Shown piece by piece: positions 8,272 through 42,789 of a stretch of 64,000 nt of DNA. The stretch lies in NCBI GenBank assembly GCA_050255815.1, contig JBLMVJ010000035.1, positions 10,727-74,726 on the forward strand, in the 5' to 3' direction. The translations under genes and the position numbers were made by a program. A model generated the notes under the pieces. The model worked only from the letters and a program-made list of their open reading frames with translations, made no database searches and was not told the DNA's origin. The DNA comes from Candidatus Levyibacteriota bacterium (GTDB lineage: Bacteria > Patescibacteriota > Microgenomatia > Levybacterales > GWA1-39-11). Positions within the stretch are counted from its first letter, which is position 1. Each line of letters starts with the position of its first letter.

Positions 8272-8698
8272 AGTTAAATTGAAAAGATAGAGATATAGCT
8301 GTTACCCAAGATTCCGGAATGAAATGAACTAAATTTGTGTCTGTGTCATCTTGGAAAAAGAATTACGCGGTAATTTCTGAAGCTATGGTTGTATTAAAAC
8401 ATGAGACCCGCCATCTTGTCAAGAGACAAGACTCAAGCTACAAGCTAATAATTATCCTCTTCTCTTACCCTTTTACTGCCCAGCTCTTACATTATTATGG
8501 GAAAGCCACTCCAAAATGATTTATAGCGTTCGAGAAAACGAAGTGACTCGAGTTAATGCTATGAACTATAGACCATTAACCATGAACGTATCCCACTTTT
8601 TTACGAAGGAAAAAAGCAAGACCGGAGTGCCAACGAGGATCTTTACTTTTCGAAAGAAGTGAGAAAAACAAGGTCTAAAGATTAGACCCTATAGTATC

Positions 8699-8727
8699 TT
8701 GACAAAGCTCAGCTATTATGATATACT
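8699..8727 (+). promoter_or_regulatory. strong sigma70-like promoter with extended -10
   Basis: TTGACA at 8699-8704, 17-nt spacer, TGa-TATACT at 8719-8727, lying 51 nt upstream of the ATG at 8779. Confidence 0.55.
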
Positions 8728-8778
8728 CCCTGGCGAGCCTGATTTTACAGGCAAATTTACATTTTCCGAAGAAAAAAT

Positions 8779-9450
8779 ATGAACTTTACTAAACTTTCTA
8801 AAATCGCTCTTACCGCCTCAGCTATCCTCATGGGATCCGCAAACCTTGCCTTTGCAGCAGGGTCTACTAATTGTGAAATAGTATACGGTGGCGGACAAGT
8901 TTGTACTCCTCAGATTAAATTTACTATAGATAAAAAGATCCAGAAGCCTACAAAAGGTGGAGGGTTTGTAGACAACCTGGGGGCAAATGATGACAAATTT
9001 AATCCCGGCCAAGACGTAGTCTTTCAAATCACTGTTCAAAATACCGGAGACCAGGCAGTAACATTAAACGTTGTTGACGTGCTTCCTTCTTATATAACTT
9101 TTGTTTCAGGCGGAAACTTTGATTCAGGATCTAATAAGGTTACCAACCAGGTCTCACTCAACCCGAATGATTCAAAAACCTTTACTATTGCAACCAGGGT
9201 GGTAAATGCCGGAGGTCTTCCTGCAAACCAATCAGTTACGTGTGTTACTAACGTTGCAAACGCTATGACCACTGACAACAACAACAGCGCGCAGGATACC
9301 GCACAATTCTGTATCCAGAATAATGTAACCGTACAGCCTCAGATTCCATCAAAATCTATCCCAAATACCGGTCCTGAAGCTTTAGCCTTACTTATTCTCC
9401 CTCCAGTAGGCGCAGCAGGTTTTTACTTAAGACGTAAAGCTGTCCTCTAA
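8779..9450 (+). CDS. secreted surface protein with a DUF11/CARDB-like fold and a sortase-type C-terminal sorting signal
   Basis: Signal peptide ending AFAAG. Central VTLNVVDVLPSYITFVSGG block. C-terminal IPNTG followed by a hydrophobic stretch and RRKAVL. Confidence 0.6.
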   Translation: MNFTKLSKIALTASAILMGSANLAFAAGSTNCEIVYGGGQVCTPQIKFTIDKKIQKPTKGGGFVDNLGANDDKFNPGQDVVFQITVQNTGDQAVTLNVVDVLPSYITFVSGGNFDSGSNKVTNQVSLNPNDSKTFTIATRVVNAGGLPANQSVTCVTNVANAMTTDNNNSAQDTAQFCIQNNVTVQPQIPSKSIPNTGPEALALLILPPVGAAGFYLRRKAVL

Positions 9451-9881
9451 TAAATCTAGAACCAAAAGGTCGGAGAGAGCGGTTTTGTCTCTTCAAACAA
9501 AGCTATCCACCACTCCCAAACTTTCTAGACAATCCCAACGACCAAAAAAATAGAACCTCTCTCCCCTACCTTTTAAGGCTTTGCCTTGCGAAAGGCATTT
9601 GCTTGCCTGAAAAAGACGGGGTTAGGGCGTGTATTTTTTACACTCCCGAATGTGCGTTTAGCTCAACTGATGTATTAGCTTATGTCAGAAAGGCAAAAAC
9701 GTGTTCTTTAACAAAAGGCATGTAGAAAAATGAAGTTTCCATTGCATCCACTTATGTGGATTTAATGGATGCTCCGATAATATCGGAGCAAGGTACTGTA
9801 AGTACCGGGTTTTGCGCGCTATGAGGAGAGACATGGCGCGCGACATCCGGTACTTACCGAGAAAAAACGGAGAAGCAGAAC

Positions 9882-10040
9882 ATGACACAGCCCTCTACAC
9901 CCGAGACCAACACCCTCGCCCATGCGCTTGCGCAAGCTTTGGCTAACCGCCAAGGTAAAAATCCACGCAAGCTGCGGACAGCAAAGGACTTTGAGTTTCT
10001 GGGCCGCGAGGTACTGAAGGTCATAGGACAACAGGCATAG
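9882..10040 (+). CDS. hypothetical 52-aa protein (first ORF of the high-GC island; below the ORF-track cutoff)
   Basis: ATG at 9882 preceded by GGAG at 9869-9872. GC-rich codons. Stop TAG lies 8 nt before the next ATG. Confidence 0.3.
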   Translation: MTQPSTPETNTLAHALAQALANRQGKNPRKLRTAKDFEFLGREVLKVIGQQA

Positions 10041-10048
10041 GAGAACTC

Positions 10049-10333
10049 ATGAACCTACTTCTGGGATACGGATCACTTGCATTCACCTCTTGGTGGATCG
10101 CAGGTACTATCGTCTTTCTTCTGATGCGCAAGCACCGGAAGACCGTCCTCTGGAGAGTGGTTTACGGACCGCTCGTGTTTATCCTCGCGGACTTTATACC
10201 TGCCCTGGCGCAAGCTATGGGTATGCGTATTTGGTACGCTGAAGGAAACGTCAACATCGCCTTCTGCCGGCATGACCCGTCAGAATTCAAGGCGATCTGC
10301 AGAGACTGCGGACAAGAGGTTCACAAATCCTAG
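10049..10333 (+). CDS. hypothetical small membrane protein (high-GC island)
   Basis: Two predicted TM helices and a C-terminal Cys-containing tail (CRHD...CRDCG). GGAG at 10040-10043 lies 5 nt before the ATG. Confidence 0.4.
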   Translation: MNLLLGYGSLAFTSWWIAGTIVFLLMRKHRKTVLWRVVYGPLVFILADFIPALAQAMGMRIWYAEGNVNIAFCRHDPSEFKAICRDCGQEVHKS

Positions 10334-10553
10334 GAGGACAGCGATTGAAGACTAGACCGCCGCCGAAGGCACTTTCCTTGGGAAGCCCCAAAAAGGCAAG
10401 CCCAAAAAGCAAGGTAGTATCCCGCAAACGCGTAAGCGTGTTCGGAACTTGCTTTCTAATGCAGAAATGCACGGGAAGAAATTCCTGGATCCTTACCGGC
10501 CCTAGTTCATCCGAATTCTGGCTTTGCAAGCCAACAGCTCATGGAGAGATGCC

Positions 10554-11990
10554 ATGAATTGGACTGCGCTACTAGCGTGGGTGATGGACCCAGTCCGCAC
10601 CCTTGACGAACTTCGGCAGGCGCACCTTGCCCTGATCGGCCATCCCAACATGGGGAACCGCGTTCAGGTGCGTGCGCGCGTGAGGAACTACATCAATCTG
10701 ATGATCGCCACCCAAGGTGGAGGAGCTCCTGCTCCTTGGCACCCTGGCATGGGCGCTCCTGTGGTTCCTCCAACGCCAACACCTGGCCCTGCGCCCGTTC
10801 CTGGTCCTGGCCCTGCGCCCGTTCCTGGTCCTGGCCCTGCGCCCATCGTCCCGCTCGTTCCGGTTGTCGGCTATCGCCCACGCATGTGGACGTACCGCCG
10901 AATGATACGGAGAGCGCTAAACGAGGGCAACACCGCCTGGATGGATACCGAACTCACGGCATGGGGAGACCCTCCGGGAGTCGGCACTCCAGCACAGCGT
11001 GCGTACCGGCTCGAGAACTTCTCGAGGTCACGGCACGGGTGGAACCGCATCGGGCATGATATCCCGGAGCTTGTTCCGCCTGGCGCACCGGCACCGGCAC
11101 CCCGCCGACAGGTGGACTACGGTCCCCTTGGGTGGATCGCAGGTGCTCTGCTGATCGCAGCCGGCGCAGCCGTACTGTTCTTCGCCTTGATTCTGCCTCT
11201 CTCCAAGTGGGGATGGGACCAGAGCTTCGGCGACGACACGGCAGTGCAGCAGCCCGGCAACCAGCCTGGTAACCAGCCCGGCGGCAACAACGGCAACGGT
11301 AGCGGCAACGCGAACCAGCCTGGCAACAACGGCAACGGTAGCGGCAACGCGAACCAGCCCGGCAACCAGCCCGGCAATAGCGGCGTCATCAAGAACTTGG
11401 CCGACGGCCAGTTCCCCTGGACACCGCCCACACCGGGTACCGACCTTGGGAACGACAAGCAGTTCACCAGCACCATCATCGAGCAGGCCAAGCAGGGAGA
11501 CTGGATTCACAGGCTCTTCAACCCTGGCTTGTTCAACGCAGCCAATAACTACGGCGGAGCCGATTCTTGGGCTATTAGCCTGAACGTCGGTCCGAACGCT
11601 GGTGGCAGCTGGAAGGGCGAGGGAGTCTCGGGACGCTTCGTCTACCGTGCTGTGCAGAATCAGGTGGGTTGGTGCCTTGGCATCCTCACCTCGAAGACGT
11701 GGAACAACATCGACCTGAAGAGTCAACTCCTCAGCGGTTCAGACCCCAGTTTGCCGATCGGATTCAACGTCCGCATCGAACCAGGGTCTACCGTGATGGT
11801 GAAGACGAACTCAGGCGAGATCAAGTCCGGCGTCACAAGCGACATGGGTGATATCCAAGTCGTTCTGCCAGACAGCGGGCTGACCACCATCTGCACTGCG
11901 TTCAGCACTGCAGCACCTACGGGTGAAAGCCAGCTTTGGGTGGGACCTCGGGACCGCTCCAAGGACATCAACACGATCGACGCGCGGTAA
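10554..11990 (+). CDS. repeat-rich single-pass membrane protein of unknown family (high-GC island)
   Basis: The listed ORF starts at TTG 10524; ATG 10554 is preferred because GGAGAG sits at 10543-10548. Contains a PGPAPVPG repeat, one TM helix (LGWIAGALLIAAGAAVLFFALILPL), a QPGN/NGNGSGNA repeat, and a ~270-aa C-terminal domain. Confidence 0.6.
   Translation: MNWTALLAWVMDPVRTLDELRQAHLALIGHPNMGNRVQVRARVRNYINLMIATQGGGAPAPWHPGMGAPVVPPTPTPGPAPVPGPGPAPVPGPGPAPIVPLVPVVGYRPRMWTYRRMIRRALNEGNTAWMDTELTAWGDPPGVGTPAQRAYRLENFSRSRHGWNRIGHDIPELVPPGAPAPAPRRQVDYGPLGWIAGALLIAAGAAVLFFALILPLSKWGWDQSFGDDTAVQQPGNQPGNQPGGNNGNGSGNANQPGNNGNGSGNANQPGNQPGNSGVIKNLADGQFPWTPPTPGTDLGNDKQFTSTIIEQAKQGDWIHRLFNPGLFNAANNYGGADSWAISLNVGPNAGGSWKGEGVSGRFVYRAVQNQVGWCLGILTSKTWNNIDLKSQLLSGSDPSLPIGFNVRIEPGSTVMVKTNSGEIKSGVTSDMGDIQVVLPDSGLTTICTAFSTAAPTGESQLWVGPRDRSKDINTIDAR
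10776..10847 (+). repeat. about 3 tandem copies of a 24-nt unit (cctggtcctggccctgcgcccgtt) encoding PGPAPVPG
   Basis: Units read directly at 10776-10799 (partial match), 10800-10823 and 10824-10847. Confidence 0.85.
11283..11360 (+). repeat. two tandem copies of a 39-nt unit encoding GNNGNGSGNANQP
   Basis: 11283-11321 and 11322-11360 differ at only 1 of 39 positions. Confidence 0.9.
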
Positions 11991-12410
11991 CGCACGGCGA
12001 TCCCAGACTCCTCGGAGTTGCCGATGGAGAGTACCTTAACGTCACGAGCACCGCCTAACCGCTGTGATGATCGTGGTCCGCCTGGAAAAGGAGGTTGACG
12101 ATAACCCTCTGGGTTGTCAGGATCCTGAGCGCAAGCTTGAGGATCTCCTCCACTACGGCGGACAGACTGGACAGTTTATGTGTTTCACGCTCCTTTGAGT
12201 TTTGCATTCAAAGAAAGTCGTGTCACGGCAAAAACTGGTTCCAGTCAGGGTGAGAGACTCATTTATTGAGAATTGATTGGATTTTTTCCATCAAGTCTCT
12301 TTTGAGACTTTCTCCCACCTACATGCCTTTGCGTCTCCCTCACCATTATGGTGAGGGACTGATGAGTATTCTTTCGGAGAAATCTGAGGGAAACGAAACG
12401 CAAAAAAAAC

Positions 12411-28895: not shown

Positions 28896-29681
28896 ATGCA
28901 TTACCTAAAGATCTTAAAAGCGCTGATAGTCATTAACACCGCATACGCGTTAGAGTACAAGGCGCATTTTGTGGCCCAGGTTTTTGCAAGCCTGGCCTGG
29001 GGCGTATTTTCCGTGGTCAACATGATCCTTTTGACGTACCGCGTCCACTCTGCTTTTGGCTGGAGCAGGAATGAGCTCATCCTTCTTTCCGTTATGGTTA
29101 ATGTAGTCTATGGCATCCACCGTATGTTGTTTGATGTAAACTTCTGGAGATTCTCCCGGATTATCCATTATGGAGAAATGGACATGGTGCTGTTAAAGCC
29201 CGTGGACTCCCAGTTCCAAATGAGCATGTGGATCATAGATATTAGCGGTATCTTCAGATTTTTAGTTGCCCTAGCGCTCACCTTTATCCTGGTTTTTGCC
29301 ATGCACTTTCCTATTTCTCTGACAAGTGTGTTGATTGCCACTATTTTAAGCCTGGCCGGTGTGGTCCTTCTCTATGCTTTCACCTATATCTTCCTAACCC
29401 TCACCATCTGGTTCTCTAACCTCTCTAACCTGATGGGACTGGTGAATAATATCCTTTCTATGTCCCGGTATCCAAAAGAAATGTATGAAGGATTAGGCAC
29501 CTACTTTTTCTTTTTTCTCTTGCCTTTAATTGTTATAATAAGCACTCCTACAAAAGCTCTCATCCAAAAGGGGAACCTGTTAGATAGTCTGCTTTTAGTA
29601 CTCTTTACTATCCTATTTTTTGCAATCTCAAGGGTGTTCTGGAAATTCGCCCTGCGGTTCTATGTCAGTGCTTCAGGATAA
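28896..29681 (+). CDS. ABC-2 type transporter permease (type 2 of a pair)
   Basis: Six TM segments. Resembles the 30671-31453 product (C-termini YVSASG versus YTSASS). Confidence 0.7.
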   Translation: MHYLKILKALIVINTAYALEYKAHFVAQVFASLAWGVFSVVNMILLTYRVHSAFGWSRNELILLSVMVNVVYGIHRMLFDVNFWRFSRIIHYGEMDMVLLKPVDSQFQMSMWIIDISGIFRFLVALALTFILVFAMHFPISLTSVLIATILSLAGVVLLYAFTYIFLTLTIWFSNLSNLMGLVNNILSMSRYPKEMYEGLGTYFFFFLLPLIVIISTPTKALIQKGNLLDSLLLVLFTILFFAISRVFWKFALRFYVSASG

Positions 29682-33598: not shown

Positions 33599-33719
33599 GT
33601 CCTGGCCTTGACCTATCTTCCCATGTTGTGTAACAACAAAGTATTGTGAGCGCTGACGTGTTTCACTTCTCTGTTCGGAATGGGAAGAGGTGGGACCACA
33701 TCGCTCTAAAGACCAAGAC
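33599..33719 (-). rRNA. rrf: 5S rRNA
   Basis: The reverse complement reads TCTTGGTC...GGTCCCACCTCTTCCCATTCCGAACAGAGAAGTGAAAC...GGCCAGGA, with helix I pairing between the termini. Confidence 0.85.
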
Positions 33720-34000
33720 TCAAGAGCAAAACCGGTAAGATCCGAATCTACTCGAATAGTTTGGGGTAACTTCTAGGCTACCCCATTCTTCTCGAATATT
33801 TCGAATTAACATTAACAAACACTAGCGCATTCGAATTGATTCGATTTAAATTCGAACCATTCGAGAATGATTTCTTAGAATCCACGCTATTTGGATCGAC
33901 CTATTAGTACAACTTCGCTGAAACAGTTACCTGTCTTACACGTGTTGCCTATCAACCTGATGGTCTCTCAGGGGTCTAAAAGAGATCTTATCTTAGGGTG

Positions 34001-34033
<33 letters not shown>

Positions 34034-34268
34034 CATGGAAATCTAGCTACCCAGCAGTGCACTTGTAAGTACAACTGGCACACCAGGGATTTCCTCACCC
34101 CAGTCCTCTCGTACTAGGGGCGACTCCCTTCAAATCTCAAACGGTTGTCCTGGATAGAGTCCGAACTGTCTTACGACGTTCTTAACCCAGCTCGCGTACC
34201 TTTTTAACTGGCGAACAGCCAGACGCTTGGGAGCTTCTCCACCCCCGCGCTAAGATGAGCCGACATCG

Positions 34269-34698
34269 CTGTCAATCCAATCAGTAATTAAGAAAGACTT
34301 AAAAACTTAAAACTGATGGTGATACTCTTGTTACCAAGAGCCTCTGACTATACCTTCATCCGCCAACTGGCGGAGCTAGTCGTATGATACAGATTATAAA
34401 TTTCTCTTTATGAGATGAATCCATATCTCACCCTCTCACCTATGCTGGTGAGGGGTTCAGTCGATAGGGTCCAAAAGAAATTTAAAATTCAGAAGTTAAA
34501 ATTCAGAATTAAATTCTTAATTCTGAAATCTGAATTCTTAACTCTATTTGAACCTCGGTATTACCCTCTTGTGTTCAGAAAGTAGGGTTTCACCGATTTG
34601 GACTAGTTATTTAAATTATTAGTACCTTGTTTTTTGACTCAAATACTAATAAATACAGGCAAGAGTATTACTACTCAGGCGCCCCGATATTTTCATAT
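34269..34698 (-). mobile_element. group I-type intron (430 nt, no ORF) after the E. coli U2500 equivalent
   Basis: Exon junction is GGCACCU | CGAUGUCGGCUC. The 5' exon ends in U and the intron ends in G. GATGAAGGTATAGTC (reverse complement of 34346-34360) resembles the group I J8/7-P7 core. Confidence 0.7.
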
Positions 34699-34742
34699 AA
34701 GGTGCCAAACCGCATCGTCGCTGTGGACGCTTGGATGCGATC

Positions 34743-34775
<33 letters not shown>

Positions 34776-35230
34776 AAGCTACGTCCCAACCACTAAGGAA
34801 CGCAGGATCACTAACACCTGCTTTCGCACCTGCTCGACTTGTAGGTCTCGCAGTCAAGCTGGCTTGTGCGTTTGCACAATACGCTCCGATTTCCGTCCGG
34901 AGTTAGCCAACCTTTGTACGCCTCCGTTGCACTTTAGGAGGCAACCTCCCCAGTTAAACTGCCCACCAGACACTGTCTTTTAGCCGTATTTTTATGCGGC
35001 ATTAAAGTAATGCTCACTCATCTTAAAGAGAGGTATTTCATTGATGACCGAAGTCTCCCTCCTATACTAAACAGTTAAAATAAGCTTGCAAATGTCAAGC
35101 TACAGTAAAGCTCCCGGGGTCTTTTTGTCCTAGGACAACCAGGCCGCGTCTTCACAGCCATCTCAATTTCGCCGTGTAAATGTTCAAGACAGTTACTCAG
35201 TCGTTCTACCTTTCGTGCGGGTCGGAACTC

Positions 35231-35548
35231 CATTGTTTTAATGTTCCAACATGGAACCTCACAGTCGCCTGTGAGATCGGACTATATCTTTCCCTTACCA
35301 AATTGGTGAGGGATCTAGCGTCTAGTCTCTGAGGGTTTTCCGATAAATCGGAATCTTCCCTGCTGATTGGCTCCACCAAGCAGATTTTTACTCTTACGAG
35401 TACTGTTGGATACTGAGCTGTTCCAGCAAATAGCTAGATTTTACACTCATTTAGGTTAACGATTGTGTTCTTACGTGACTGTTTTGCTTGTTCCTGATGT
35501 GTATCCCGATTAGATCGGGACTCGGGCAAGTTGATTTGACCCAAACCA
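35231..35548 (-). mobile_element. group I-type intron (~318 nt, no ORF) after the E. coli U1951 equivalent
   Basis: Exon junction is UCCUUGUCGGGU | (G)AGUUCCGACC. The 5' exon ends in U and the intron ends in G. AAGATATAGTCC (reverse complement of 35279-35290) and GAGACTAGACG core-like motifs are present. Confidence 0.65.
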
Positions 35549-36885
35549 ACCCGACAAGGAACTTCGCTACCATAGAACAGTTATAGTTACTGCTGCCGTT
35601 CACCGGAGCTTTAGAAAGCGGCTCCACCTTGCGGTTTCACCACCCACTATTGACTTACCGGCACTGGGCAGGTGTCAGCCCCTATACGTTACCTTTCGGT
35701 TTTGCAGGGACCTGTGTTTTAGATAAACAGTCGCTAAGTAATCTTTTGCTTAACCTGGATGTTACTCCAGGCAGGGCATCTCCCATAGGTTACGCCCAGC
35801 TTTTGTTGCCGAGTTCCTTGAACATTTGTCTCACGGTCGCCTTAGTCTACTCGACCAATCCACCTGTGTCGGTTATGCGGTACGGCAAAATATAGCACTC
35901 CTCACGAATCTTTTCCTGAAGACTGAAACTTACGATCCTCACCCTACTTTCTTGCGATTTCAGATTTGCATTCGCCACTTAATTAAACACTTTGACGGAT
36001 TTGCCCATCAAAACTATCTTATGGCTTGGACCCTGTTTACAGGGCGATCCTTTCCACTCTTGTCCATCCTTGAGTAATAACGCACTATACTCTGTAGCAG
36101 AATATTAACTGCTTGTCCATCCGGCTACCCCGCGCTTTATGACGGGCCACCGTTAGGAGCCGACTAACGCTGCGCTGACTTACATTGCGCAGCAAACCTT
36201 GGATTTTCGGCGGACGCCGTTCTCAGGCGTCATTCGCTACTCATGCCGGCATTCTCACTTGTAAACGCTCCACCATACCTTACAGTACAGCTTCGCTGCA
36301 TTTACGACGCTCCCCTACCACTTGCTCCGATAAATCGGAGTCAAATCTCCATCGTCGGTATTAAGCTTAATCCTCGATCATTTCCGGCGCCATTCTCCAA
36401 TGTCGACTAGTGAGCTGTTACGCTTTCTTTAAAGGATGGCTGCTTCTGAGCCAACCTCCTAGCTGTCTATGGAAAATGACTTCCTTATCAACTTAGCTTA
36501 AATTTAGAGACCTTAGATGGGAGTCTGGGCTGTTTCCCTTTAGACCCACGAGCTTAGCCCCGCAAGTCTGACTCTCTATTAAGTTTTTACGGTATTCGGA
36601 GTTTGATTGATCCTGAAAAGTTGCCTCTCCAGAGACCATTCAGTGCTCTACCCCCGTAAAAACATACAAAAGGCTATACCAAAATATATTTCGGGGAGAA
36701 CCAGCTATCTCCAGGTTCGTTTAGTATGTCACCCCTTACCACAAGTCGTCTCAGATCATTGCTGCGATCACGAGTTCGGGCCTTCCTCATCCTTTCGAAC
36801 AAGTTCACCCTGCTCATGGTAAGCTCACCTGGTTTCGGGTCTTTTGCAATGCGCATTTAGGTATCCCAGTTAGAGATCGCTTTCA

Positions 36886-36992
36886 CTATGCCTCCCCCCT
36901 CACCTTTCCAACGAAAATTCCAACCTTTGTTTTAAATCGAGCTTGTTTCGATAATATTTCAAAGTGGTAATCCTCATTAGAATGGTGAGGGG
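36886..36992 (-). other. 107-nt stem-closed expansion/insertion in the 23S domain II helix-25 region
   Basis: Closed by cccctcacc (36886-36894) pairing with ggtgagggg (36984-36992). Absent from the E. coli and B. subtilis sequence as I recall it. Confidence 0.5.
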
Positions 36993-37360
36993 TTAGACTG
37001 CGCAATACAAAAACTCACCGGCTCATTCTTCAATAGGCACGACGTTATACCCTTGCGGGCACTTCGTCTGCTTGTTAGCTAATAGTTTCAGTAACTCTTT
37101 CATTCCCCTCCCGGGGTGCTTTTCACCTTTCCCTCGCGGTACTAGTTCACTATCGGTAGATGTTGATATTTAGCTTTGGAGCGTGGTCGCCCCGGCTTCC
37201 CACAGGGTTTAATCGTACCCCATGGTACTCAGGAACAGGCAAGAAGTGAAAATCATTTCAAATACGGGACTATCACCCTCTTTGGTCTCTTTTTCCAAAA
37301 CGTTCTTCTATGATTTCCATTTGTGACTTCTTTTGCATTTAAGCAAGCCGTCCTACAACC

Positions 37361-37660
37361 CCCCTCACCTTTTTATCACTAACCTTTTTAAAAGTTCTTG
37401 CCAAGCTTTTGCGCGCTTCTTAAGCGCCTGCTCTCTTCTAAAAGCTAATTTATAAGAAGTATATGCTTCATAATAAATAAGCTCCCATGGCAAAAACTTT
37501 TTAGTATATATAGACTTTCCTTTATTATGGTCCGTAAATCGAGTTTTAAGATCTTTTGTTGAACCAATATAAAACTGGTCGAACTTTACACTCTTAAGAA
37601 TATACGTGTAGAACATAAGTCTATTATAGTTATTTAAGTTAGGAACAAAAAGGTGAGGGG
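37361..37660 (-). mobile_element. 300-nt stem-closed intervening sequence in 23S domain I carrying a GIY-YIG ORF
   Basis: Perfect 10-bp closing stem: cccctcacct (37361-37370) with aggtgagggg (37651-37660). It replaces the short hairpin that follows ...CAGCYCAAACC in other bacteria. Confidence 0.6.
37365..37616 (-). CDS. small GIY-YIG (URI-domain, COG2827/YhbQ-like) nuclease encoded inside the 23S insertion
   Basis: MFYTYILKS...FYIGSTKDLKTRFTDHN...E...ALKREQALKK pattern. Same orientation as the rRNA. The stop codon lies within the closing stem. Confidence 0.8.
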   Translation of the reverse strand: MFYTYILKSVKFDQFYIGSTKDLKTRFTDHNKGKSIYTKKFLPWELIYYEAYTSYKLAFRREQALKKRAKAWQELLKRLVIKR

Positions 37661-38003
37661 TTTGAGCTGTTCCGCGTTCGCTCGCCGCTACTGACGGAAT
37701 CTCTGTGATTTCTTTTCCTCGGACTACTTAGATGTTTCAGTTGGTCCGGTATCCCGCCGACTACTAATATATTAATCTTGCGACTAATAACTTCATAGCA
37801 GGCTCCCAGTTAAACTGGGGGGTTTCCCCATTCGGACACCACCGGATCATAATGTCTTCGGCCATTCCCCGGTGATTTTCGCGAGCCAGATGCGTCCTTC
37901 TTCGGTCAACACCTCCTAGGCATCCACTATTAGCATGAATCAAATAGCGTAGATTCTAAAAAACCAATTCATTAAAAACCATGCCTCGGCTTGAAACATG
38001 GAA

Positions 38004-38028
38004 AATCCGCCACCCGGCGGATTTTTTT
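38004..38028. terminator. GC hairpin with flanking A/T runs in the tRNA-Ala to 23S spacer
   Basis: aatccgcc-accc-ggcggatt followed by T7 on the plus strand, and by TTTTCC on the minus strand. Confidence 0.35.
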
Positions 38029-38222
38029 AATCCTCCGTCCCGATTAGATCGGGACTTCGGCCTAGTTGTTTGTTTGTAATTCTTCCAATTATTAATGAGC
38101 AAAACGCTTTTTGCGTTGCCCTCGGATGTAATCCGAGGCCATATCTCTCCTGTACTCGTTTCTCGCCGGGAAGTATATTGCCCTTCCACCAGCGAGGAAC
38201 CAATACAAGAAAACTAAAAAAG

Positions 38223-38295
38223 TGGACCCAAGGAGATTTGAACTCCTGACCTCGTCATTGCAAATGACGCGCTCTACCAGCTAAGCTATGGGCCC
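38223..38295 (-). tRNA. tRNA-Ala (anticodon UGC)
   Basis: The reverse complement GGGCCCATAGCTTAGCTGGTAGAGCGCGTCATTTGCAATGACGAGGTCAGGAGTTCAAATCTCCTTGGGTCCA folds as a cloverleaf with G3:U70. CCA is not encoded. Confidence 0.95.
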
Positions 38296-41853: not shown

Positions 41854-42789
41854 TTATGCTTTTTGCATGGTGAGCCAGCGCTCTATATCTAGTGCTGCCA
41901 TGCAGCCAAATCCTGCGGCAGTTACTGCCTGGCGGTACCTATCATCCTGGACATCCCCGGAAACAAAAACACCTTCTATATTAGTCCTCACCCGTTCTTT
42001 TGCGCTTACATACCCGCTTTGCGTCAAATCTACCCCTTTAAAGATAGATGAATTTGGCGTATGGCCAATAGCCACAAATATACCGTCTATAGGCATTTCT
42101 GTTACTTCCTGGGAGACGGTATTCTGGATTTTAACCTTCTCTACTTTGTTCCCCCCCAGTACTTCAACAATTTGAGAGTTAAGCATAACTTTAATTTTTG
42201 GGTTATTTTTTACTTTATCCTGCATAATCTGGGATGCCCTAAAGCTGTCCCTTCTATGGAGCAAGGTAACTTCTGCAAAATTGGTGAGGAAGTTTGCTTC
42301 CTCCATAGCAGAATCCCCTCCGCCTACAACTATGATCTTTTTTCCCCTAAAAAATGCCCCGTCACAGGTTGCACAGTATGAAATACCGCGCCCGGTCAGC
42401 TCTTTTTCACCCGGTACGCCCAGTGTTTTTGAATTCTCACCGGTAGCCAGGAGAAGGGCTTTGCCTTTATAGGTCTTCCCGTCCGCTGTTATAGAAAACG
42501 GAGAGGATGCCCCTGTCAAATCTGTAGGATCAGCATCCGCATTCACGAACGTTACTCCAAAACGCTCTGCCTGGCTTCTCATTTCCATCATAAGCTGGGG
42601 TCCCTGTATTCCTTTGGGAAAGCCCGGGAAGTTTTCAACCTCCGTAGTAAGCATGAGCTGGCCACCCCAAGTCTTCCCTGCAATGATAAGAGTTTTAAGT
42701 CCGGCTCTGGAGGTATAAATTCCTGCAGTGAGGCCGGAAGGACCGGATCCTATGATGATTACATCAAAAATGGGTAATTCAGAATTCAT
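41854..42789 (-). CDS. trxB: thioredoxin-disulfide reductase
   Basis: FAD motif IIIGSGPSG, redox-active CATCDG, and NADPH motif VVGGGDSAMEEA. Confidence 0.88.
   Translation of the reverse strand: MNSELPIFDVIIIGSGPSGLTAGIYTSRAGLKTLIIAGKTWGGQLMLTTEVENFPGFPKGIQGPQLMMEMRSQAERFGVTFVNADADPTDLTGASSPFSITADGKTYKGKALLLATGENSKTLGVPGEKELTGRGISYCATCDGAFFRGKKIIVVGGGDSAMEEANFLTNFAEVTLLHRRDSFRASQIMQDKVKNNPKIKVMLNSQIVEVLGGNKVEKVKIQNTVSQEVTEMPIDGIFVAIGHTPNSSIFKGVDLTQSGYVSAKERVRTNIEGVFVSGDVQDDRYRQAVTAAGFGCMAALDIERWLTMQKA

Follow-up and report, generated by a model that had tools for sequence, protein, structure and literature searches.

The short G+C-rich helix that recurs in and around the 23S rRNA gene described here is probably the terminal inverted repeat of small selfish elements built around a gene for a single-domain GIY-YIG protein of ~83 aa, from which the gene-less copies of the helix would be derived. 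The arms of the repeat belong to the element and not to the host site, and they co-vary with the protein. The GIY-YIG unit has been copied to new sites, accompanied by gene-less derivatives, and these sites are often helices of structural RNAs. The window referred to below is the whole stretch of DNA that was analysed (64,000 nt, from a Candidatus Levyibacteriota bacterium).

The 23S rRNA gene and the recurring helix

The tRNA-Ala, 23S and 5S genes are grouped at 33600-38295, all on the minus strand; the 16S gene was not found within the 64-kb window, and the rRNA genes are unlinked. The 23S rRNA gene has an excess length of ~1.1 kb due to four insertions, which are listed here together with the hairpins and the gene under discussion.

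12336-12358, no strand assigned: solo intergenic hairpin, TCCCTCACCAT-T-ATGGTGAGGGA
33883-37949, minus strand: 23S rRNA gene, 4067 nt
about 34269-34676, minus strand: group I intron after U2500
34431-34455, minus strand: hairpin in the U2500 intron, CCCCUCACC-AGCAUA-GGUGAGAGGG, with a bulged A
35258-35526, minus strand: group I intron in the U1951 region
35291-35313, minus strand: P8 of the U1951-region intron, UCCCUCACC-AAUUU-GGUAAGGGA, from the Rfam Intron_gpI alignment and fold
36896-36992, minus strand: 97-nt insert without a gene in the helix 28 tip; its arms are CCCCUCACC (36984-36992) and GGUGAGGGG (36896-36904)
37361-37660, minus strand: 300-nt insert in a domain I hairpin (Rfam LSU model 274-295), with the 83-aa GIY-YIG gene inside
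37361-37374, minus strand: 3′ arm of the GIY-YIG insertion, RNA sense AAAAAGGUGAGGGG
37365-37616, minus strand: GIY-YIG nuclease ORF, 83 aa, single domain, co-oriented with the 23S rRNA gene
37623-37628, minus strand: TATAAT box, read from the sequence, 6 nt ahead of the start codon of the GIY-YIG ORF
37647-37660, minus strand: 5′ arm of the GIY-YIG insertion, RNA sense CCCCUCACCUUUUU, forming a perfect 14-bp inverted repeat with the 3′ arm

The first-pass annotation had described five instances of one helix and considered them unlikely to be independent. Every instance was found in the sequence, and the lack of independence is borne out by the count for CCCTCACC, which has 10 matches on both strands of the window against 1.90 expected, a number reached in 0 of 100 shuffles. 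Eight of these matches are paired instances that together make up the five hairpins, and the two unpaired singletons, at 29398 and 53744, are as many as chance would provide. In the GIY-YIG insertion, CCCCTCACC is located at 37361-37369 and GGTGAGGGG at 37652-37660, and the perfect inverted repeat extends to 14 bp (37361-37374 / 37647-37660). The intron that was said to follow U2500 does so, and in its hairpin, at 34431-34455, a single A is bulged out of the 3′ arm of the RNA. The hairpin of the U1951 intron is present at 35291-35313 with the single G:U pair reported, and the intergenic palindrome at 12336-12358 is perfect (11+1+11).

The smaller rRNA insertion required revision in position, length and helix. 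Its first arm had been assigned to 36886-36894, which is off by 10, as CCCCTCACC sits at 36896-36904 and pairs with 36984-36992; hence, the insert is 97 nt long and not an expansion of 107 nt. In the Rfam LSU alignment, an 89-nt insert appears near model position ~655 and interrupts the tip of the hairpin at model 644-669, which is helix 28 by our own helix mapping. The earlier placement in the region of helix 25 is rejected by this alignment, in which the equivalent of helix 25 (model 572-600) is intact in the 23S rRNA of the window. Comparison of 36850-37700 with Rfam at E≤1 gave the LSU model as the sole match, with no Intron_gpI ribozyme core.

The outer CCCC/GGGG of both rRNA stems is probably native rRNA, as judged from the Rfam alignment and from the uninterrupted helix 28, AACCCCGCTAAGCGGGGGG, of the closest relative, L009. 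In the RNA sense, the 11-mer AACCCCUCACC is common to three copies and AAAGGUGAGGGGGG to both rRNA inserts, and only one copy within the 64-kb window lies outside the 23S gene. The hairpin of the U2500 intron was placed between the P3′ and P7′ strands and is therefore regarded as P8 by analogy with the other intron; the two P8 hairpins could share ancestry and would then represent one event. The possibility that this sequence is the general P8 of CPR group I introns was rejected on account of three introns at locus L030 that do not have it. A sixth pair, TCCTCACC / GGTGAGGA, at 41985-42290 with a 290-nt loop, was taken as chance; it lies inside a 311-aa ORF (41854-42789), where no GIY-YIG remnant was traced.

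Other repeats were observed in the window. A perfect 12-nt inverted repeat, AAAGGCATGTAG / CTACATGCCTTT, at 9714-9725 and 12319-12330 surrounds an island (9726-12318) of 59.7% G+C that includes a 488-aa ORF with Pro/Gly/Asn repeats and no Pfam match. The CCCTCACC palindrome is located 5 nt outside the right arm of the island, and the hairpin may therefore mark or attract an integration site. A second hairpin, TCCCGATTAGATCGGGA, is identical at 35504-35520 (U1951-region intron) and 38038-38054 (23S leader), with 0 copies expected. A third, TCCGATAAATCGGA, has four copies (18308, 35339, 36326 and 44896; expected 0.03), one of them in an intron and one in the body of the 23S gene. The genome represented by the window seems to contain several families of small dispersed hairpins. 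The U2500 intron further includes a long A+T-rich palindromic stretch with aattcagaa repeats (34466-34554), for which only weak hairpin-type matches were found in Rfam.

The GIY-YIG gene and its flanking arms

The 83-aa protein encoded in the domain I hairpin matches Pfam PF01541 (E 1.7e-15) and otherwise only the overlapping T5orf172 model. Residues Y5, Y16, R26, H30, E50 and E62 are invariant among 143 homologues, and the named homologues come from Levybacteria, Paceibacterota and other Patescibacteria. Searches of PADLOC gave sub-threshold matches only and PHROGs none; in NCBIfam, the only match was a sub-threshold one to a group I intron endonuclease model (18.9 against a cut-off of 56 bits). 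The ORF extends into the 3′ arm, GGTGAGGGG, which contains its TGA stop codon. At the other end, L001, L005, L009 and L012 likewise have a TATAAT 6-10 nt ahead of the start codon despite diverged surroundings, and this conservation suggests that the ORF may be expressed independently. The box may be an internal -10 element inside the rRNA gene that directs synthesis of a leaderless or near-leaderless mRNA.

Loci with homologues of 46-59% identity were taken from one-genome-per-species contigs (80 loci), and in the 67 short-ORF loci with full flanks, the 100 nt on either side of the ORF were compared for the longest perfect inverted repeat that they share. Such a repeat, 10 nt or longer, surrounds the ORF in 54 of the 67, mostly from Patescibacteria, with a median of 14 and a maximum of 30 nt; displaced controls have a median of 6 nt, and a length of 10 nt is attained in 5 of 217. 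The median distance from the end of the 5′ arm to the ATG is 9 nt, and the 3′ arm overlaps the stop codon or the ORF in 28 of the 54. The arm consensus is YCCCNCAC(A)CC...GGTG(T)GNGGGR, with outer ends (A)YCCC[T/G/C]CAC(A)CC and a complementary partner, and at the variable position both arms change together. The outer 8-12 bp are perfectly Watson-Crick paired and conserved in sequence, and the inner stems drift.

The exact arm variant of the window was found around the gene in the 23S rRNA gene of L012 and, not in rRNA, in L047, L053, L066, L127 and L189. Proteins with the same arm class are more alike (59.3 versus 51.3% identity, permutation p<0.0005). A single class can be found in several host RNAs, and one host site, P3 of RNase P RNA, is occupied by several classes. 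As the class tracks the protein and crosses host sites, the arms travel with the gene and are not set by the host helix.

Two further observations concern hairpins at other loci. Locus L057 includes a tandem array of four 39-nt units, each starting with GGGTTTACCCCTCACCTTTTTT (2112-2260), and several short CCCCTCACC hairpins adjoin its GIY-YIG homologue. Loci L093, L103, L104, L119 and L138 and other metagenome loci have distinct long G+C-rich palindromes, CCCCTCACCTTTATCCTCTCCCCC...GGGGGAGAGGATAAAGGTGAGGGG, with the same outer arm; this palindrome family is probably from other bacteria.

The motif had been named beforehand as one to be sought in the rRNA insertions of relatives, and it is present in them. 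An ORF occupies the same 23S hairpin in relatives, with proteins 64-82% identical to that of the window (71-82% in the metagenomic contigs L001-L009), and the arms are identical, AAACCCCTCACCTTT...AAAGGTGAGGGG (L001-L009 and L012), though the flanking rRNA has diverged. Helix 28 is without an insert in L009, L001 and L005, and none of the L001-L009 contigs has this insert. Conversely, the 23S rRNA of L009 carries an insert of 95 nt without a gene in the region of helix 9/10, a site that is empty in the window, and the arms of this insert, TCCCTCACCATTATG...AATGGTGAGGGA, equal those of the intergenic palindrome of the window over 14-15 nt. The 23S rRNA of L012 (Patescibacteria STL-PAT6) has three CCCTCACC-armed inserts, namely the GIY-YIG unit and two gene-less hairpins of ~100 nt elsewhere. 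The same 23S gene also includes a second GIY-YIG paralogue with different arms, GGCAGCTCATT / AATGAGCTGCC, at 8470-8785. Short gene-less hairpins are found at the domain I site of the 23S rRNA in L147 and L133.

Gene-less copies, host RNAs and the origin of the hairpins

Gene-less hairpins have the arm variant of their own genome in L012, L079, L018, L033, L050, L029, L062, L189 and L127. In five of these (L018, L033, L050, L062 and L029), one solo hairpin each matches the arms of the resident GIY-YIG element over 13-15 nt, which exceeds the family core. The derivation is most direct in the 23S rRNA of L079, which has two TCCGTCACC-armed inserts, a GIY-YIG element in the region of helix 25 and a 101-nt gene-less insert near the 5′ end. 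The latter is a copy of the element with an internal deletion: its 5′-terminal ~57 nt and 3′-terminal ~45 nt align with the element, the ORF is deleted, and the limits of homology are exactly the arms, TCCGTCACC / GGTGACGGA.

The 97-nt insert of the window was likewise considered as a recognisable deletion remnant of the GIY-YIG insertion, and this was rejected, as no local alignment between them scores above shuffled sequences. Among the gene-less rRNA inserts of ~95-103 nt (window, L009 and two in L012), no alignment of the interiors scores above shuffled sequences either, and only the arms are shared. Given the dissimilar interior of the window insert, its derivation is argued from the arms and from the other genomes.

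Host sites were counted over 69 short-ORF loci using Rfam and aragorn. Eight elements are inside RNase P RNA genes of CPR genomes (L014, L018, L027, L033, L050, L058, L062 and L080), four inside 16S rRNA (V1 or V3 hairpins) and three inside 23S rRNA, and nine end 5-20 nt before a tRNA gene. The RNase P site was assigned to P3, as the 5′ strands of P1 and P2 are upstream and GAGGAAAGUCC is immediately downstream. Many copies occupy apical loops of structured RNA genes, and all RNA-hosted copies are co-oriented with the host RNA (16S, 23S, RNase P RNA and tRNA 5′ ends). In several of the eight RNase P RNAs, the element is accompanied by another hairpin that lacks the gene and has an identical arm variant (for example L033, 6492-6525; L062, in P12). 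No description of GIY-YIG elements in P3 of RNase P RNA was found in the literature searched.

In eight of the nine tRNA cases (L022, L026, L047, L051, L064, L067, L070 and L074), a 5′ part of the tRNA of 9-39 nt is duplicated upstream of the element. It looks as if these elements had been inserted inside the tRNA gene, with the duplication restoring an intact copy. Direct repeats of this length (9-39 nt) are confined to the tRNA-adjacent copies, and a consistent target-site duplication was not seen at the rRNA sites.

The fold of the 97-nt insert of the window is a single extended hairpin (-52.1 kcal/mol, z -9.8), the sense strand being 12 kcal/mol stabler than the antisense. The gene-less rRNA inserts in general are single long hairpins with z of -8 to -10, and their sense strand is stabler by 8-19 kcal/mol and has more G:U pairs. 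The stability of the sense strand and the excess of G:U pairs indicate that the inner stem evolves as an RNA helix.

The following mechanism is proposed. In the autonomous form, a perfect inverted repeat would tightly surround a GIY-YIG gene of ~83 aa, as at 37361-37660 in the window. The 97-nt insert, both intron P8 hairpins and the intergenic palindrome would be gene-less copies with CCCTCACC arms, either solo hairpins or deletion derivatives. The GIY-YIG protein, like SsnA (see below), would recognise the hairpin by its stem sequence in single-stranded DNA and nick beside it, after which repair or copying would spread the hairpin unit. In the transcript, the arms would pair and lengthen an existing helix. 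Because arm pairing would do no more than this, the insertions could be tolerated in rRNA, in RNase P RNA and in P8 of introns, and for the same reason the interruption would be phenotypically quiet. The extended helix may be kept as an expansion segment or removed by RNase III.

The first-pass annotation had offered two interpretations of the helix, the footprint of a small mobile hairpin or a shared module recognised by a nuclease, by RNase III or by an RNA chaperone. The former is supported, since the same arms occur in relatives at 23S sites that are empty in the window and vice versa, and since the gene-less copy in L079 derives from the GIY-YIG element of the same 23S gene. Of the latter, the nuclease part is retained in a specific form, in which the likely partner is the GIY-YIG nuclease encoded in the insertion, and it is plausible, by analogy, that the hairpin is targeted in single-stranded DNA and not in RNA. 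RNase III or an RNA chaperone as the cause was not upheld, because either leaves the shared sequence unexplained, the arms bracket GIY-YIG genes outside RNA genes and the arm variant follows the protein and not the host RNA.

Among other explanations, it is unlikely, if worth weighing, that the arms are halves of a palindromic homing site. The enzyme would then cut a pre-existing CCCNCACC-loop-GGTGNGGG, an ORF or filler would enter the loop, and the short hairpins would be unoccupied targets. The short hairpins at the 23S site in L147 and L133 do appear empty. The short hairpin occurs in at least 120 metagenome contigs (at least 125 hairpins, several in some contigs), mostly outside rRNA among the matches listed; only five of those listed are in or beside rRNA, and two of these are alleles of the domain I site without the gene. 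The native helix 28 of L009 (CCCCGC/GCGGGG) and P12 of RNase P RNA resemble the outer arm, and the interiors of the gene-less inserts are mutually unrelated, as this explanation would allow. However, at least five 23S sites, two 16S sites and P3 of RNase P RNA would all need the same non-native stem, and relatives have such sites without the stem, as in the insertion-free alleles at helix 28 and at the L009 site. Moreover, the two-site homology in L079 takes in the arms plus about 45 nt of the interior and stops exactly at the arm ends, and the 13-15 nt match of solo hairpins to the resident element goes beyond the family core.

An origin of the helix as the RNA processing stem of a classical intervening sequence (IVS), for example an RNase III substrate, with one IVS duplicated and the nuclease irrelevant, is improbable. 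It would fit the location of both insertions at helix tips with long stems and the inner stems with G:U pairs that are stabler on the sense strand, and an RNase III-type IVS origin has been proposed for non-intron insertions in CPR 23S rRNA (PMC11270868). On the other hand, the arms bracket GIY-YIG genes with no host RNA gene detected nearby in L053, L066, L189 and L127, the element in L047 is immediately upstream of a tRNA gene, and there is the intergenic copy at 12336-12358. The outer 8-9 bp retain perfect Watson-Crick pairing and a conserved sequence even between elements with proteins of ~50% identity, unlike the drifting inner stems. RNase III is not known to have a sequence requirement of this kind.

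It is very improbable that the hairpins are fixed marks of a host-domesticated Ssn-like system, serving for example in restriction of incoming single-stranded DNA, and are not now mobile. Ssn has been shown to modulate transformation and its domestication has been proposed (PMC11893778), and in the present family the ORF is conserved with intact catalytic residues. Against this, site occupancy varies among close relatives, deletion derivatives occur at new sites within one gene, and several paralogous elements with different arms share one 23S gene in L012; placement in essential RNA genes also fits a selfish element better. Finally, the idea that an 8-mer rich in G+C recurred by chance, alongside native rRNA helices, can be dismissed, for although CCCC/GGGG in the two rRNA stems is probably native, the excess of matches (10 where 1.9 are expected, a count attained by none of 100 shuffles), the pairing of copies within 300 nt and the conservation of the arms in relatives argue against it.

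The interpretation as the terminal inverted repeat of a selfish GIY-YIG element ties the GIY-YIG-bearing and the short ORF-less rRNA insertions of CPR bacteria to one family with a recognisable signature, and this family reaches RNase P RNA, 16S rRNA and intron P8 as well. The arm consensus would provide a simple key for annotating rRNA insertions in metagenomes, and the protein-hairpin pair is concrete and testable. If the mechanism holds, a parasite consisting of a nuclease and a hairpin can live inside essential structural RNAs. More tentatively, and with the balance somewhat against it, the elements may constitute a distinct class of mobile element that moves via single-stranded DNA hairpins and prefers the apical loops of structured-RNA genes, where its repeat serves as a helix extension. 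This class would then represent a third way, beside self-splicing introns and inteins, to invade essential genes harmlessly, and could account for a large share of the short non-intron rRNA expansions that lack an explanation in CPR bacteria.

Comparison with known systems

The rRNA genes of CPR bacteria are riddled with insertions, and the explained part consists of introns and LAGLIDADG proteins only (PMC11270868). Tsurumaki et al. (2024, J Bacteriol, PMC11270868) catalogued rRNA insertions of CPR bacteria that are not introns and encode GIY-YIG proteins, along with many short ones, and both kinds were left uncharacterised. As far as the catalogue goes, the insertion in the window is the same phenomenon. 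That paper reports no shared closing helix, inverted repeat or hairpin, and makes no link to the short ORF-less insertions or to RNase P RNA.

The IVSs of 23S rRNA are removed by RNase III and some bear an ORF, such as the helix 45 IVS of Coxiella with S23p (PMC4990558). With these IVSs, the window inserts share the sporadic occurrence of a non-intron insert at a variable 23S helix tip, the long closing stem and, in some cases, an ORF. They differ from them in site (a domain I hairpin and helix 28, in place of helices 25 and 45), in having a GIY-YIG nuclease as the ORF product and in the occurrence of the arms also in 16S rRNA, RNase P RNA, introns and intergenic DNA.

As in REP/REPIN-RAYT systems, a gene is found between inverted palindromic repeats, gene-less repeats are dispersed (PMC3116915, PMC3337134) and recognition is presumably as a single-stranded DNA hairpin. 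However, the enzyme of the window is of the GIY-YIG type and not an HUH/Y1 transposase, so that the layout alone is analogous, and copies of the window type are located inside structural RNA genes, whereas REPs are only extragenic. Homing endonucleases of the I-TevI type likewise have a GIY-YIG catalytic domain encoded in an insertion within an essential gene, but the window element has neither a ribozyme nor a separate DNA-binding domain. Classical IS and MITEs combine terminal inverted repeats with a target-site duplication of fixed length; inverted repeats are present here, and direct repeats (9-39 nt) are seen in tRNA-adjacent copies only and not at rRNA sites.

The closest parallel is with the recently discovered Ssn nucleases, which are specific for single-stranded DNA. 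Ssn proteins are small single-domain GIY-YIG nucleases with genes flanked by the hairpin repeats NTS/SRM (Chenal et al. 2025, Nat Commun, PMC11893778). SsnA binds its cognate hairpin as single-stranded DNA only, by sequence and structure, cuts just upstream of it, and tolerates loop extensions and split stems (PMC11893778). The authors note a resemblance to insertion sequences and REP/RAYT, and a role in restriction of single-stranded DNA was proposed for Neisseria (PMC11893778). The window element is similar in its single-domain GIY-YIG protein of less than about 150 aa (83 aa, compared with 94 aa in SsnA), its inverted, hairpin-forming flanking repeats with a C-rich/G-rich stem starting (A)TYCCC, the additional gene-less cognate hairpins in the genome (four further copies in the window) and the co-evolution of the repeat variant with the protein.

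There are also differences. The gene in the window is enclosed by the two halves of a single hairpin, of which one adjoins the start codon and the other the stop codon, whereas a canonical Ssn gene lies between two complete hairpins. The SRM pattern HGTCWYN(0-2)YYVSBRHN(0-5)WNVSBRGN(0-2)RNCYNB, with its upstream GTC, has 0 matches in the window. The hosts here are CPR bacteria, and copies lie in helices of rRNA, RNase P RNA and introns, none of which is mentioned in PMC11893778. Rhizobial homologues of the window protein do have canonical SRM flanks, and a Neorhizobium homologue matches the pattern on both sides; the plasmid collection yielded three distant homologues only, which were used solely to link the family to canonical SRMs. 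With the family profile, SRM-flanked rhizobial proteins score 55-57 bits, the non-SRM Acetoanaerobium protein (L092) 59.7 bits, and UPF0213 chains in the PDB 47.9 and 41.5 bits. Judged by these scores, the window protein would be about equally close to UPF0213 and to SRM-flanked Ssn-like proteins. Given the unmatched SRM pattern, the split hairpin and this equidistance, the window element is not classed as a member of the Ssn/SRM systems; by analogy, it would nevertheless work like an Ssn/SRM pair.
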